NCBI GenBank assembly: GCA_038128265.1
Contig: JAYPJE010000012.1
Location: 37,333-92,606 of the forward strand
Length of the DNA stretch: 55,274 nt
Direction of reading: 5' to 3'
From: Gemmatimonadota bacterium
GTDB lineage: Bacteria > Latescibacterota > UBA2968 > UBA8231
Each line of letters starts with the position of its first letter. The first letter of the stretch is position 1. Both the position numbers and the translations under genes were made by a program. Below, piece by piece: positions 34,784-39,330 of the stretch. Under the pieces are notes generated by a model. That model was not told where the DNA came from and ran no database searches. It was given only the letters and a program-made list of their open reading frames with translations.

Positions 34784-36730
34784 ATGACCAAACACGAAGA
34801 CCATACCGCTTTTCGGAGGTCGCCCTTTAGCATGCGCGGCCTCTCGCTGGGCGTTGTGCTCTCGCTGGCTATTGGTCTGATCGCTCCCTATGGGATTGTC
34901 TTCAACTACTACTGGATCGGTTTCAACCCCTCGTCGCCGGGTGCGCTCTTCTTTTTTTTCATACTGACGTTTGTTGTCAACGCCATTGTTGGGTTGGTCA
35001 GCCGCAACTTCGAGCTGAGCAAAGCCGACCTGGTGATGATTTACTGCATGCTGTTAATGTCCGTCACCGTGCCGACGTGGGGCCTTATGTTTTTCCTTAT
35101 TGGCACGCTGGTATATCCCTTCTACTACGCCACGCCCGAAAACAACTACGCCGAACTGTTCTATGATTTTATACCTGCGTGGATGGTGCCGCAGGATTTT
35201 CAGGCGATCAAGGACTACTACGAAGGCCTGCCTGAAGGCGCGGCGATTCCATGGGGTGTGTGGGTTGAGCCGATGGGCTGGTGGCTGGCGCTAATCGTGG
35301 CGATGAGCCTTATGTTGATCTGCCTGAGTGCCATTCTGCATCGCCAGTGGTCGGTGCACGAACGCCTGGCCTATCCGATGGTGCAGCTGCCGCAGAACAT
35401 GATTGAAAGGGATGGAGATGCGTTGCTGGCGCCCTTTTTTAAGAGCGGCACTATGTGGCTGGGATTCTTTGTGCCCTTTACGTTGCTCAGCCTCAATGCC
35501 CTCAATCACTATTGGCCCATTGTGCCGCAGTATAGTCCCAGCGGGCGCTTTTCGCTGTTTAACGAGACGCTGCACTTGCCCATCGCGCTCAACCTGGCCT
35601 GGGTCGGCTTTTTCTATCTGGTCAATCTCGAGATCACCTTTAGCATTTGGTTTTTCTACGTGCTATCCAAAGTGCAGGAAGGGGTCTTCACTACGCTTGG
35701 CATCGCCAGCACGGAACGACTGAGCGCCTATGAGTATTCGCAGCCGGCCGATCTGACGCACCAGGCTACCGGCGCAGTCATCGTGCTGGTGCTCTACGGG
35801 CTGTGGAGCGCGCGCGTCCACCTGAGAGAAGTCGTGCAAAAGCTGTGGGACCCACGGGGAGGTGTCGACGACAGCGAGGAGTTGCTGCGCTACCGTACCG
35901 CTCTGTGGCTGTTCTTCGGCAGCCTGCTCTTTGTCGCCGTTTGGCTGTGGCGCTCGGGCGTGCCGATCGTCGTGCTGCCGGTGCTGATCGTCGTCAGCCT
36001 GATATTCTTTATTCTCGTCGCGCGCGTGGTGGCCGCCAGCGGCGTGGCGACGGCGCGCAGTCCAATCGTTCCGGCCTACTTCATTATTTCTGGGTTGGGT
36101 ACTTCGGTGCTGGGTGCCAAAGGACTGGTCGCGCTCAATTTCACGTTTATATGGCAGGGCGAATCGCGCACCTCGCCGATGGTGGCTGCATCCAACGGCC
36201 TCAAATTGGCCGAATTAATACCCGGCTCGAAGACGCGGCTGTTCTGGGGTCTGATGCTGGCGCTGGTGTGTTCGCTGCTGGGCGCAGCCTATATGACGCT
36301 CAAGCTGGCCTATACCTACGGCGCCATCAACCTGTCGTTGATCAACTGGGCCGGCGCGCACGGTTGGCCCTACATCGGACCCACCATGGTCAACATGCCC
36401 GATGCCGATATGCGCGGCTGGCTCTTCAAGGGCATCGGGGCGGTATGCGAGGGGTTTCTGATGTGGGCCCAGCACCGCTGGCACTGGTGGCCCTTTCACC
36501 CCATTGGCTTTGCTATTGCCGTCGGCTGGTTAACCAGCCAGATCTGGTTTTCGGCGCTGATCGGCTGGCTGGTGAAAGGAGCCATTGTGCGCTTTGGCGG
36601 CGTTACGCTCTTCCAGAATATGAAGCCCTTTTTTCTCGGTCTGATCCTCGGGGAAGTGTCCGCGTCGGGCGTGTGGGGGGTTATCTACGTGCTGACAACG
36701 GAACAGGGACGCTGGCTGACCAATATGTGA
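34784..36730 (+). CDS. Polytopic membrane protein, DUF6785/DUF6784-like (putative transporter)
   Basis: About 17 hydrophobic segments, QW...ERLAYP, WWPFHPIG and PFFLGLILGE motifs typical of this family. Confidence 0.8.
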   Translation: MTKHEDHTAFRRSPFSMRGLSLGVVLSLAIGLIAPYGIVFNYYWIGFNPSSPGALFFFFILTFVVNAIVGLVSRNFELSKADLVMIYCMLLMSVTVPTWGLMFFLIGTLVYPFYYATPENNYAELFYDFIPAWMVPQDFQAIKDYYEGLPEGAAIPWGVWVEPMGWWLALIVAMSLMLICLSAILHRQWSVHERLAYPMVQLPQNMIERDGDALLAPFFKSGTMWLGFFVPFTLLSLNALNHYWPIVPQYSPSGRFSLFNETLHLPIALNLAWVGFFYLVNLEITFSIWFFYVLSKVQEGVFTTLGIASTERLSAYEYSQPADLTHQATGAVIVLVLYGLWSARVHLREVVQKLWDPRGGVDDSEELLRYRTALWLFFGSLLFVAVWLWRSGVPIVVLPVLIVVSLIFFILVARVVAASGVATARSPIVPAYFIISGLGTSVLGAKGLVALNFTFIWQGESRTSPMVAASNGLKLAELIPGSKTRLFWGLMLALVCSLLGAAYMTLKLAYTYGAINLSLINWAGAHGWPYIGPTMVNMPDADMRGWLFKGIGAVCEGFLMWAQHRWHWWPFHPIGFAIAVGWLTSQIWFSALIGWLVKGAIVRFGGVTLFQNMKPFFLGLILGEVSASGVWGVIYVLTTEQGRWLTNM

Positions 36731-36741
36731 CCGGGCGCGGC

Positions 36742-37734
36742 TCAACCCACTCGACCTAGCGGTCGGGGCGCGCGGCCCAGCGGTAGGCAGGCCGGTTCTT
36801 CAAAGGGCCTGAAGGGCACCTGTGCGGCAATTTCGTCGATGCGCTGCAGCACGGCGTCGGGCAGGGGGCCGCGCTGGCAAGCGTCGACGTTGAGGTCGAC
36901 TTCCTCGGCCGAACGCGCGCCCATGAGGGTGCAGGAAATATCCGGATTGGACAGCACGAAGCGCAGCGCCATTTCCGGCAGGCTGATGCCGCTTTCGTCC
37001 AGCAGGGCGTATAGGTCGAGCAACTGCTGGCGCCGCGGTGGGCTGAGCCAGTGCGGATTCCGCTGCACCTCGGCGTCGTGTCGGCGCGCGAGCACGCCCT
37101 GCTGCAGCGGCGAGCCGATAACCACGCCCATATCGAGCTTTTTAGCCGTTGGCAGGATGGCGATCTCCGCTTCGCGCCACAGCAGGCTGTAGTTAAAGGC
37201 GGTCAGCACTACGTCGAAGCGCCCCGTTTCCATAATGGGCACCATGGCATAGGCGGTAGTGCCGCCCAGACCCGTATAGCGCACTAGGCCCTTCTCTTTG
37301 AGTGTATCGAGCACGTCGAGCACGGGGCCGGTGTAGCGCTCGCTGTCACTCCACCAGTCGAACTGACCCGGTCGCTCGGGTTCGTGCACAAAGAGCACGT
37401 CGATGTGCGTGCGCCCGAGCAGGCGTAGACTCTCTTCGACGGAGTGATATAGATGATCGGCATTCTGCGGTTCAAAGGGGTCCGGTCGGCCGCCGAGCTT
37501 TGTAGAAAGGATAAAGGGCGCCTTCACGTCGGGCAGCACCTGGCCCAGCACTTCCTCGCTATTGGCATATGACGGAGCGGTATCGACGTAGTTGATGCCG
37601 GCGTCAAAGGCGCGTAGGATGGCCTGGCGGCCCTGTTCAAAGGCGCCGCCGACGGAGGAGACGAAGAGTCCTCCGAGCGAGAGTTCACTCACCTGCAGTT
37701 CAGTCCTTCCCAAACGGCGCGTGCGCATGGGCAT
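36742..37734 (-). CDS. Aldo/keto reductase
   Basis: LGRTELQVSELSLG, DTAPSY..SE, LSTK and HEP. Confidence 0.92.
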   Translation of the reverse strand: MPMRTRRLGRTELQVSELSLGGLFVSSVGGAFEQGRQAILRAFDAGINYVDTAPSYANSEEVLGQVLPDVKAPFILSTKLGGRPDPFEPQNADHLYHSVEESLRLLGRTHIDVLFVHEPERPGQFDWWSDSERYTGPVLDVLDTLKEKGLVRYTGLGGTTAYAMVPIMETGRFDVVLTAFNYSLLWREAEIAILPTAKKLDMGVVIGSPLQQGVLARRHDAEVQRNPHWLSPPRRQQLLDLYALLDESGISLPEMALRFVLSNPDISCTLMGARSAEEVDLNVDACQRGPLPDAVLQRIDEIAAQVPFRPFEEPACLPLGRAPRPLGRVG

Positions 37735-37837
37735 TTCTTCCTCACGTATAGCAGTGGGCTGGCAACAAACGCGTATTCGATCCCGAATGGCTGCTCGCCG
37801 CTGAGGGCTTGGCCACTTTTAAGGGGCGTGCGCCGAG

Positions 37838-37866
37838 AGTATAAGGTGGCGAAAACGCGGCGGCAA
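37838..37866 (-). promoter_or_regulatory. Sigma70 promoter for the aldo/keto reductase
   Basis: Minus strand TTGCCG-N17-TATACT, about 100 nt upstream of the start. Confidence 0.55.
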
Positions 37867-37955
37867 ACAAATGCGGGCTTGCGCTAGCAGCTCACTGGAT
37901 CAAGCGCGGGAATAGGTCGTGCGCGCCGCGGCCGGAAGCGGCTCCATAAAAATGC

Positions 37956-37982
37956 TCAAGATCGCCGTCTACTTGCCGATAC
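37956..37982 (+). promoter_or_regulatory. Sigma28 (FliA)-type promoter
   Basis: TCAAG-N14-GCCGATAC, matching the TCAAG/TAAA...GCCGATA consensus. Confidence 0.6.
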
Positions 37983-37989
37983 TTAGTAT

Positions 37990-38270
37990 TAAGTGATACA
38001 AAGAGCGCATATGCTCTTCGAGAGGAAACGCAGCACACGCGGTGAGATTCGCGCTCAATGGCGCGGTATCATCCTGGAGGAATTTACCTTACTTGCCGCT
38101 CGCACCGGCGCTTGGTCTGGAGGAGATACAAGCGTCTTAGCTGAAGGGGTGGCGGCCTCGACGCGAGCACACGAAACCGGCCGTTGCCCGAAAAATACAC
38201 TACACCCAAGGACATAGTACCGATTCCATATGACACCCCGGGGCGCTCCTCCCACGCCCCGGGTTTTTTT
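37990..38270 (+). ncRNA. Candidate structured small RNA (GGA-rich, C-rich terminator loop)
   Basis: Bounded by a sigma28-like promoter and a + strand intrinsic terminator. Several stems, six GGA motifs and no convincing ORF. Confidence 0.5.
38237..38270 (+). terminator. Rho-independent terminator (+ strand)
   Basis: Perfect 9-bp stem cccggggcg/cgccccggg, loop ctcctccca, then T7. Confidence 0.8.
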
Positions 38271-39330
38271 ATGTGTGCCAGTAGGTAGGTATGTCTACGG
38301 GCGAGCCGTTTTGCAGCGCGCTCTGATGGGCGCAGAGCCCTGGAACGGACATGTCGAGCGCGGCCCCGATATCTATGGGCGGCGGCAGGTCGCAGCGTAT
38401 GCTCTCTAAAAAATCGCGCACCATATAGTATTCCGCCGTGCCGTGCCCGCCGGCATCGGCGCCGCGTGGTGCGTTGGGATCGTTGTGGCCGAGCGCTAGT
38501 TGCACCATCTGCTGCTCGGTGCCGTCGCCAAAAAACGCGTTGGTGCGCAGCGCGTCGGGCGGTCGCTGGCTTTCCAAACAGCCGCGCGTTCCGTAGAGCG
38601 AGTAGTAGTGAAAGGCCGGCTCGCGCGCGACGCGGAACGAGGTCAGCACTTTGAGCGTTGCGCCTTCCTCTGTCTGAAAGAGCGCAACCTCGCTGTCGTA
38701 GTGGTCGGGACCGGGCTGCAGGCGCGACGGCGTGGCTAGGGCAACGGCCCGTCGCACGCGTGTGCCGCTAATCCACAGGAGCGGGCCCAAGCTGTGCGTC
38801 AGGTAGTGAATGGGCGGCAGCGTCGCGCGCCAGGTTGGTTTCCCCTGCGCATCGGACATCAGCGAGCGCACGTCGTGCACGTATTCCGCTTCACCGTGCA
38901 CCAACTCACCCAGCTGTCCCGCCTGCCACATCTTCTTCCACTCGGATACAAAGTGCCAGTAGCAGCAATTTTCGGCGAGCATAAACTTTTGCTGCGGATG
39001 TGCCTGCACGGCGTCGTATAGCTGTCGACACTGCTCGAGCGTTTCGGCGAGAAATACCTCTTGTAGAACATGGCAGCCCGCCTCCAGCGCGGCGATGCTC
39101 TGTTCGGCGTGCAGGGCGACGGGCGAGGCGACGACGCAGATATCGGGCCGCGTTTCCAGCAGGTCTTCAAAGCGAGTAAAGCGCTGTGCATCGGGATAGC
39201 TGGTGGCAACGTGCTGCAGGCGCTCTTCATCTACGTCGCAGAGTGCGCTGAGGCGACAGTCGTCAAACAGGGGGAATACGCGGGCAAAGCCCGCGCCGCG
39301 GCGCAGGCCGCAGAGGGCTACGTTCAGCAT
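38269..39330 (-). CDS. Gfo/Idh/MocA family oxidoreductase
   Basis: N-terminal Rossmann fold, ASP..LH..QSI.ALEAG.HVL.E, AENCCY and GGHG. Confidence 0.9.
   Translation of the reverse strand: MLNVALCGLRRGAGFARVFPLFDDCRLSALCDVDEERLQHVATSYPDAQRFTRFEDLLETRPDICVVASPVALHAEQSIAALEAGCHVLQEVFLAETLEQCRQLYDAVQAHPQQKFMLAENCCYWHFVSEWKKMWQAGQLGELVHGEAEYVHDVRSLMSDAQGKPTWRATLPPIHYLTHSLGPLLWISGTRVRRAVALATPSRLQPGPDHYDSEVALFQTEEGATLKVLTSFRVAREPAFHYYSLYGTRGCLESQRPPDALRTNAFFGDGTEQQMVQLALGHNDPNAPRGADAGGHGTAEYYMVRDFLESIRCDLPPPIDIGAALDMSVPGLCAHQSALQNGSPVDIPTYWHT

Follow-up and report, generated by a model that had tools for sequence, protein, structure and literature searches.

An RNA gene under a sigma-28-type promoter in Latescibacterota and its probable origin in the 3′ end of a small-protein mRNA

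Introduction

Almost nothing is known about the regulatory RNAs of uncultured phyla such as the Latescibacterota; a full-text literature search for Latescibacter together with small RNA (sRNA) returned nothing related, a result that does not exclude prior publication. The question treated here arises from a stretch of DNA of 55,274 nucleotides (the window; positions 37,333 to 92,606 of contig JAYPJE010000012.1, assembly GCA_038128265.1) from a bacterium of this phylum, named G000 below. Between two minus-strand genes of the window, an initial annotation made from the letters alone had noticed a plus-strand sigma-28-type promoter and an intrinsic terminator enclosing about 280 nt without a credible open reading frame (ORF), and had read the unit as a flagellar sRNA that titrates CsrA or pairs with Shine-Dalgarno (SD) sequences. 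What does this gap encode, and where does it come from? On balance, we favor the following answer: the gap holds a stand-alone noncoding RNA gene of about 280 nt (about 37988–38270, plus strand), running from a sigma-28 promoter to an intrinsic terminator, and the main new finding is that its RNA family arose in the 3′ end of a small-protein mRNA and has outlived the protein.

Results

A plus-strand unit conserved from promoter to terminator

The two flanking genes, both on the minus strand as annotated, leave a gap of 534 nt (37735–38268, not 535), and the promoter and terminator lie on the plus strand within a base or two of their first placement. The sigma-28 (FliA)-type promoter, TCAAG (37956–37960)-N14-GCCGATA (37975–37981), is directly preceded by the A-tract ATAAAAAT (37946–37953), which could act as an UP element; an A-run occupies the same spot in other members of the genus. 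The promoter is followed by a conserved 5′ leader, TAGTATTAAGTGATA(c/t)(a/t)AAG (37984–38003), nearly invariant in seven of the eight genomes of the genus (g1, genomes G000 to G007) and in G061 of the sister genus g14, with a related form in G005, G020, and G051. Transcription probably starts within or just before this leader, at about 37986–37992. A first hairpin of the minimum free energy (MFE) fold, AAGAGC/GCTCTT (38001–38018), opens a variable region (38019–38090) of low identity to relatives, the site of the ancestral ORF body described below. This stem, proposed in the initial annotation, is also formed in G001 and G004, other members having a different hairpin at this place; its second proposal for the 5′ half, tgatac/gtatca, is neither conserved nor part of the MFE fold.

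The 3′ part of the unit begins with the 5′ strand of a candidate pseudoknot, GCUCGC (38098–38103), complementary to positions 38163–38168. Next come hairpin a (38107–38136), seen in both the MFE fold and the alignment consensus, which has a bulged A and presents GGAGG in its 5-nt apical loop (38119–38123), and hairpin b (38147–38189), whose stem of 10–11 bp closes a 21-nt loop containing the 3′ pseudoknot strand GCGAGC (38163–38168). The linker that follows is weakly structured, and around its CCCAAGGA motif (38205–38212) the closing stems found by local folding are weak and vary in register. The unit ends with the intrinsic terminator (38237–38270): a 9-bp G+C stem, in which CCCGGGGCG (38237–38245) pairs with CGCCCCGGG (38255–38263), a 9-nt loop CUCCUCCCA (CTCCTCCCA, 38246–38254), and a T7 run (38264–38270) that overlaps the stop codon of the convergent GFO_IDH_MocA oxidoreductase gene. 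The minus-strand side of the hairpin has no T-run, and the hairpin thus terminates plus-strand transcription. A consensus terminator scan did not flag it, presumably because its loop of 9 nt falls outside the allowed range of 3–8. A riboswitch or other cis-acting leader would need a gene to act upon: no same-strand gene follows, the terminator abutting the stop codon of a convergent minus-strand gene, and no riboswitch family was matched in an Rfam scan.

By blastn against 41 relatives, the element was found in eight genomes, 8/8 of the own genus and 0/33 outside it. In relatives other than the closest one, matching sets in at 37948 of the window (query position 214); conservation hence starts at the promoter, and it ends at the terminator. 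The most distant congeners, G003 and G007, are reached by blastn only through a leader match of 29–37 nt, and reading by eye shows that they contain the whole unit. A covariance model (R1) built on 38091–38268, with full-length matches counted under stricter filters, matches 13 of the 76 genomes of the family: 8/8 in g1, 5/31 in g14, and 0/37 in 16 other genera. A model restricted to the core (R2) recovers the same 5/31 in g14, and by covariance model the own genome has one copy. Searching for relatives with a seven-row alignment gave one true locus, in a Latescibacterota metagenome-assembled genome, and one chance match. A metagenome scan with the leader pattern gave eight loci, one a chance match and seven near-identical to the RNAs of G002, G004, G006, and G007, which therefore add no diversity. 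An Rfam search, as suggested in the initial annotation, brought no family to its gathering score anywhere in the window; on 37700–38350, with E up to 10, it returned only ar14, NsiR1, and Acido-Lenti-1, all far below threshold and driven by the terminator, and on five homologous loci only chance miRNA or TEG147 matches elsewhere.

Identity of the 3′ domain (38091–38268) to G001, G002, G004, and G006 amounts to 0.90, 0.79, 0.80, and 0.79, respectively, far above the 0.69, 0.60, 0.51, and 0.43 measured at 4-fold sites in the oxidoreductase gene next to it; with 0.70, 0.51, 0.51, and 0.55, the middle of the unit (38004–38090) is about neutral. As judged from these comparisons, purifying selection acts on promoter, leader, and 3′ domain in lineages where no protein is encoded here, which implies that the RNA itself must do something and argues against a mere pseudogene. 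The absence of a credible ORF, as first claimed for G000, agrees with the comparison of the eight ORF-less RNAs, which conserve no frame: each has its longest ORF at another position, in another frame, and with another sequence. The 74-aa ORF 37993–38217 was considered as a gene and rejected; in the closest relative, G001, it shifts frame and becomes a 49-aa hybrid, elsewhere it is missing, and it has no Pfam family.

Expression finds weak support in a salt-marsh metatranscriptome (one RNA library, available as contigs), in which two contigs match, both wholly inside the unit. One covers 38066–38224, and the other 38090–38124 plus 38197–38275, ending 5 nt past the T-run. Both come from close relatives, one with G004-like sequence at its loose end. 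The bare flanks cannot be read as silent, for the flanking genes of these relatives may exceed the divergence that a likeness of 88% allows.

Compensatory changes in the 3′ domain

RNAalifold, the single-sequence MFE fold, and pair counts agree on hairpin a, hairpin b, and the terminator. The two stems drawn in the initial annotation at 38109–38134 and 38147–38189 do exist and are conserved with compensatory changes. The MFE is −98 kcal/mol (z = −2.0), a value equaled by two of 200 shuffles. Across the 13 sequences, 89.0% of 23 pairs are paired, compared with 81.3% (standard deviation (sd) 1.0) in shuffles, and 13 of the 23 pairs have changed on both sides, compared with 6.2 (sd 1.7) expected; 0/500 shuffles reach either value, counts that overstate the significance since the 13 sequences are related. 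When the partners were slid by 1–3 columns as a control, 28–47% were paired. Hairpin b contributes 10 pairs that are 93.1% paired, 7/10 with double changes, and the outer part of hairpin a shows double changes in four of five pairs. Within the eight genomes of the genus, 38 pairs are 89.4% paired; six of the 12 pairs of hairpin a have changed on both sides, and the nine terminator pairs are 100% paired, with one GC-to-AU compensatory pair in 3/8.

The pseudoknot is a candidate and the weakest-supported helix: its eight pairs are 88.5% paired in the 13 sequences, and two of them have changed on both sides. It takes the form CUCGCGCG with CGCGCGAG or CGUGCGAG in G003 and G007, and in G005 one pair becomes G-U. 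In g14, the complement reaches 8 bp, GCUCGCAC with GUGCGAGC.

Descent from a small-protein gene

The initial annotation missed that the unit descends from a small-protein gene and that the part conserved beyond the genus is the pseudoknotted core. In G005, a member of the same genus, and in g14, a small protein gene lies 5′ of the core and overlaps it. The G005 ORF has 92 aa (88 from ATG; L006:1581–1859, minus strand), with the pattern ..VCWEPSCQMHRL.HW...WVARP....YSHSICRSH.R..., and stands alongside the same type of promoter (TCAAG-N14-GTCGATA), a related leader, and the 3′ domain. Its frame continues across both hairpins and ends directly behind hairpin b. In the ORF-bearing relatives, the pseudoknot strand TGCCGCTCGCAC is read as the codons C-R-S-H, and in G000 a 28-codon remnant frame (38058–38144) still reads ..TCRSH.., such remnant frames differing in every genome. 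Two more relatives with the ORF show identities of 85% and 64%. The G000 unit thus derives from a small-protein gene of the sigma-28 regulon (CWEPGC..H...SHGIC..H, 70–130 aa), of which it has lost the ORF.

A profile of this protein run over 168 genomes of the phylum gave 16 matches, all in the own family: one of eight genomes in g1 (G005), 2/2 in g7, 3/3 in g9, 5/5 in g13, 1/2 in g10, and 4/31 in g14. It found no copy anywhere in the genome of G000. Among 1.84 billion representatives, a profile search returned 33 proteins of 49–130 aa (23 at E up to 1e-10), in the alignment of which C21, C26, W39, and C56 are invariant and H29, R30, H53, and H59 near-invariant. No Pfam or NCBIfam family covers the small protein. 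The AlphaFold model, with a mean predicted local distance difference test score (pLDDT) of 94.5, consists of one short helix, one small sheet, and a long helix at the C terminus; no PDB structure was matched by Foldseek at E up to 0.001, and a wide VIA-align search reached a best Z of 3.1, which does not make the modeled fold new. The small Cys/His family, as CWEPGC.MHRL..W...YSHGIC..H, is also present at L029:1601–1861 (minus strand) in G057, with loci L033–L046, and in many of the small proteins the C terminus reads ..AA(A/V/T), a tail whose codons, in genomes with hairpin b, lie in the 3′ strand of this hairpin.

The ORFs of g14 are found in several states: those of G020 and G051 have several internal stops, that of G057 has one TAG, and that of G047 is without the invariant first Cys. 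In G061, the ORF is missing, and promoter and leader abut the core. In g7, g9, and g13, the ORF genes have no RNA core and possess sigma-28-like promoters. The promoters before the small-protein ORF read TAAAG-N14-ACCGATAA in G015 and G043, TCAAG-N14-[AG]CCGATA in G041 and G013, and TAAAG or TAGAG-N14-GCCGATG in g13. A convergent GFO_IDH_MocA gene lies downstream in g1 (77–93% aa identity in G001, G002, G004, and G006) and also in g7 (56–58%), so that the g1 and g7 loci are positional orthologues. Given that the protein occurs in genera that do not have the domain, it is, by this distribution of sequences, older than the RNA domain.

In a FliA tree, g1 groups with the four FliA-bearing, RNA-bearing g14 genomes (support 97/94), which fits a single origin of the RNA core. 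Since the ORF is intact in G005 (g1) and nearly intact in G057 (g14), it was lost at least once in each genus; the tree places G005 in a polytomy and gives no order of ORF loss within g1. The sequence of events would be as follows. In the common ancestor of the own genus and the flagellated part of g14, the mRNA 3′ end would have acquired a compact structured domain, composed of the first pseudoknot strand, hairpin a, hairpin b carrying the second pseudoknot strand in its loop, a linker, and a terminator. In G000 and six congeners, the reading frame was then lost by deletion or decay, with promoter, leader, and 3′ domain retained.

Link to the flagellar regulon

The sigma-28 promoter recognized in the initial annotation is kept in 8/8 genomes of the genus as T[CA]AAG-N14-[GA][CT]CGATA, and motifs of the same type stand before flagellar genes of the same genome: TAAAG-N14/15-GCCGATA before two flagellin genes and flgM, and TAAAG-N15-ACCGATA before a fliS-like gene. 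A relaxed sigma-28 pattern has 20 matches in the 4.29-Mb genome, four of them before the two flagellin genes, flgM, and the fliS-like gene; about three chance matches would be expected by a rough estimate from base composition. The genome encodes FliA (277.6 bits) and csrA with fliW directly upstream, all three genes that the initial annotation had wished to see. Across the 76 genomes of the family, FliA was detected in 35 (E up to 1e-40). The ORF or the RNA occurs in 24 genomes, 23 of them with FliA. The exception is G057, a 58%-complete genome with csrA; it is the sole holder of the element among the 41 genomes in which FliA was not matched. The FliA-positive genomes of g14 number four, and all of them belong to the five that bear the RNA. 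The element is hence restricted to fliA-holding genomes, bar the 58%-complete G057. From its promoter, we infer that the unit belongs to the sigma-28 (FliA) regulon and depends on FliA.

The flagellar genes of G000 include a large region, C2:106914–145000, with 6/9 of the Flagellin_N matches of the genome, fliW-csrA (C2:108190–108790), fliS (126077), and flgM (127152). A second FliS-like gene (PF02561, 76 bits; locus L063) has its promoter, TAAAG-N15-ACCGATAA, at C9:3637–3663 (minus strand) and extends to about C9:3140; its leader includes the 11 letters with which the RNA begins, UAGUAUUAAGU, by chance or as a shared element. More matches of the sigma-28 motif lie at C7:39193–39218 (minus), C8:14976–15002 (plus), C79:8519–8544 (minus), and C4:68268–68294 (minus); some of the further matches have no obvious long ORF behind them and could be late-flagellar transcripts or RNAs.

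Used as a seed, the leader of the RNA has no complement of 12 nt or more in G000 apart from its own locus. Two 11-nt complements exist, one upstream of lon (C27) and one in the fliS-like leader (C9). The lon site was rejected as a target and taken as chance, being missing upstream of lon in all four relatives examined (G001, G004, G005, and G006). In G000, this lon leader (C27:9378–9391, locus L062) reads ACTTAATACTAAGTGGT, the reverse complement of the leader palindrome of the RNA; ACTTAATACTAAGTGGT is also identical at 21/25 positions to the promoter and leader of g14, probably by chance. The inverted repeat ACTTA-N4-TAAGT has only two occurrences in the G000 genome. Upstream of lon in G001, G006, and G004 (L065, L066, and L068) lies a sigma-54-type motif, GGCAC-N5-TTGCC, and the corresponding place in G000 reads ...ATATTGCCC.

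GGA and CCUCC motifs

Three short motifs, GGAGG in the loop of hairpin a, CCCAAGGA in the linker, and CCUCC in the terminator loop (38248–38252), are each invariant in 8/8 members of the genus. The loops of hairpin a and the terminator are complementary over 5–7 nt through GGAGG:CCUCC, and in G000 the complementarity of GGAGGAG (38119–38125) to CTCCTCC (38246–38252) is exact, as first noted. Both copies of CTGGAGGA that had been pointed out, at 38074 and 38117, exist, the one at 38074 not being conserved in relatives. The relatives carry 3–7 GGA triplets, of which only two positions are common to 8/8 members of the genus. GGAGG coincides with the ancestral codons Q-E-E-I. In G000, the leader of flagellin 1 (C2:120516–120688) contains two AAGGAGG sites, one of them at the SD. 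The csrA gene was found in 8/8 genomes of g1 and in four of the five RNA-bearing g14 genomes.

Neighboring genes

The gap is bounded by a minus-strand gene of the Pfam family Aldo_ket_red (aldo/keto reductase, 36742–37734) and by the GFO_IDH_MocA oxidoreductase gene (38269–39330, minus strand), which is convergent with the unit. The aldo/keto reductase gene is adjoined by a plus-strand gene for a 648-aa multi-pass membrane protein of unassigned family (window 34784–36730).

Discussion

A possible mode of action

Anatomy, conservation, descent from the ORF, and confinement to fliA-holding genomes are shown by the sequences; the mode of action is inferred. The RNA would act in trans as a regulator of the late flagellar program. 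Our leading guess for its mode of action, held tentatively, is that the two invariant GGA sites, in the GGAGG loop and in CCCAAGGA, may capture one CsrA dimer. Such a decoy would resemble the flagellin leader and lift the repression by CsrA while sigma-28 is active. The terminator loop with its CCUCC would either kiss the GGAGG loop or pair with SD sites, and an internal GGAGG:CCUCC kissing loop is possible on the basis of this complementarity. Put together in the boldest form, which we regard as speculative and doubtful, the unit would provide the first RNA to antagonize a CsrA of the FliW type: a sigma-28-driven decoy with a GGA pair like that of the hag leader, gated by the GGAGG:CCUCC kissing loop, and exapted from an mRNA 3′ end, followed by two or more independent losses of the ORF (one in g1 and one or more in g14).

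Several observations weigh against parts of this picture. GGAGG, AAGGA, and CCUCC are missing from 5/5 g14 homologues, four of which have csrA, so that CsrA capture cannot be the function of the shared core. The conservation of GGA loops expected at the outset is accordingly found within the genus and fails beyond it, and, with csrA present in GGA-less g14 genomes, its co-occurrence does not discriminate. The six GGA triplets of G000, first taken as the signature of a CsrA sponge, equal what dinucleotide shuffles give (5.65, sd 1.7; 256/500 reach six), and the conservation of GGAGG may partly be a coding legacy. Conservation of the leader might reflect a promoter or operator role instead of the function of the RNA. 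In the pseudoknot, three of the eight pairs never vary and there are few varying columns. The metatranscriptome contigs belong to relatives and give no strand, ends, or level, and DNA is possible in such libraries.

Other explanations of the locus

Sequestration of CsrA can be imagined on a larger scale, as in CsrB/RsmZ-type RNAs, in which many loop-exposed GGA motifs sequester several CsrA dimers. The presence of csrA and fliW, the six GGA of G000, and the GGA shown in the loop of hairpin a would suit such a multi-site sponge, which we disfavor as highly improbable given that GGA stands at shuffle expectation, that two positions are common to all eight members, and that no Csr/Rsm family appears in the Rfam scan of 37700–38350 even at E up to 10. 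An anti-SD sRNA is a more serious competitor, if still an unlikely one. Here the CCUCC terminator loop would pair with the ribosome-binding sites of its targets and repress them, the GGAGG loop serving as an internal competitor or switch. Repression of this kind is the mode of cuckoo/ar14-type and other sRNAs with C-rich loops. It would account for the invariance of CCUCC (8/8) in a loop whose stem is 100% paired, and the sole Rfam hint, ar14, aligns through the terminator loop; as a parallel, the dual-function RNA VcdRP is described in a review (PMC12612679) as needing four conserved cytosines at its 3′ end for pairing. Yet there is one C-rich loop only, the g14 homologues have unrelated terminator loops, a 5-nt seed that fits any SD brings no specificity, and the perfect complement GGAGG in the same RNA would compete with the targets. 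Attention may instead belong to the pseudoknotted core, as a platform for a protein partner or as a nuclease-resistant 3′ fragment, with GGA and CCUCC as minor genus-specific additions. The parts common beyond the genus are indeed CUCGCAC, hairpin a, and hairpin b with its GUGCGAG loop, the leader being added in some g14 members; the core has most of the compensatory changes and persists in g14 members with a dead ORF. We consider this improbable at present, as no Rfam family or known motif matches the core and the invariance of the genus-specific motifs across eight diverged species argues for their importance.

Two further explanations deny the RNA any role. A decaying, functionless pseudogene, with a promoter and a terminator merely not yet eroded, would agree with the clear loss of the ORF, the near-neutral middle region, and the several stages of decay among the g14 ORFs. 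It is very unlikely in view of a 3′ domain far above 4-fold-site identity, of helices maintained by compensatory changes, of the intact promoter, leader, and terminator in 7/7 substantially diverged ORF-less species of the genus, and of conservation that begins sharply at the promoter. That the unit is a small protein gene, encoding either the 74-aa ORF 37993–38217 or the 28-codon remnant 38058–38144, is scarcely credible: both frames are open in G000, but neither is conserved, the longest ORFs of the eight members are unrelated, and, read by eye, no SD precedes the ATG of the remnant. We therefore retain, on balance, the stand-alone RNA gene that emerged from a small-protein mRNA.

Significance

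The family presents a natural series, from the protein gene alone (g7, g9, g10, and g13) through the protein with an RNA tail (G005) and the dead ORF with the RNA (g14) to the RNA alone (G000 and six congeners). This series bears on a question that the review of dual-function RNAs treats as open, namely which function came first and whether one was lost (PMC12612679); in the literature on sRNAs evolved from pseudogenes or protein genes, our search found nothing useful. The unit also adds a sigma-28-controlled RNA outside the Proteobacteria, and the analysis flags a small Cys/His protein family in the late flagellar regulon that is unannotated and folds confidently in prediction. If the CsrA idea were true, an RNA layer would stand atop the FliW-CsrA partner switch, which has been described as operating without antagonizing sRNAs.

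Comparison with known systems

The terminator hairpin with its CUCCUCCC loop recalls the alphaproteobacterial ar14/cuckoo RNAs (RF02344), the identity that the initial annotation had considered. These RNAs have several hairpins with CCUCCUCCC loops, of which the ar14 model consensus displays one of CCUCCUCCC type. Membership was rejected: the match scores 19.4 bits against a gathering score of 58.8 (E = 0.24) and runs through the terminator loop alone, and the Latescibacterota unit differs in having one C-rich loop, in which only CCUCC is conserved in relatives, and in belonging to a different phylum.

Likeness to CsrA antagonists, known here from sequence alone, consists in a GGA in a hairpin loop plus a second GGA, in csrA and fliW side by side, and in flagellar timing. 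The sRNAs CsrB, RsmY, and RsmZ carry many GGA, clearly above chance and mostly in loops, and 13–22 sites are mentioned for CsrB/C; the unit described here, unlike these, has two conserved GGA sites, no enrichment, and no match to an Rfam Csr/Rsm family. A setting closer to that of G000 is offered by Campylobacter jejuni, where, in an account centered on flaA mRNA (PMC4894983), CsrA is described as controlled by the antagonist FliW in the absence of antagonizing sRNAs, and by Bacillus subtilis, for which FliW, not sRNAs, is likewise given as the antagonist of CsrA.

The sigma-28-dependent sRNAs of Escherichia coli, UhpU, MotR, FliX, and FlgO, are presented by Melamed et al. (eLife 2023, PMC10578931) as derived from untranslated regions (UTRs), linked to Hfq, and enterobacterial. 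Common to them and to the present unit are an RNA regulator under the flagellar sigma factor and an evolutionary tie to an mRNA of that regulon, through its UTR or its end. The Latescibacterota unit differs as a stand-alone gene with its own promoter and with no sequence or Rfam relationship to them.

The closest parallel in organization is found among dual-function RNAs. The review (PMC12612679) considers mRNAs with a regulatory 3′ end as a possible source of such RNAs, and it notes that sgrT is missing from some SgrS homologues and that the pairing site of VcdRP lies at its 3′ end. Like SgrS and VcdRP, the family described here combines a small ORF with a conserved 3′ RNA domain, both in G005 and the RNA alone in G000. 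Unlike them, its protein is larger (70–130 aa) and older than the RNA domain, and the ORF overlaps the domain instead of lying beside it. With a homologue that has kept its ORF intact and an RNA that appears, from sequence comparison, to be under selection without one, the family shows both traits of a dual-function lineage that lost its ORF.

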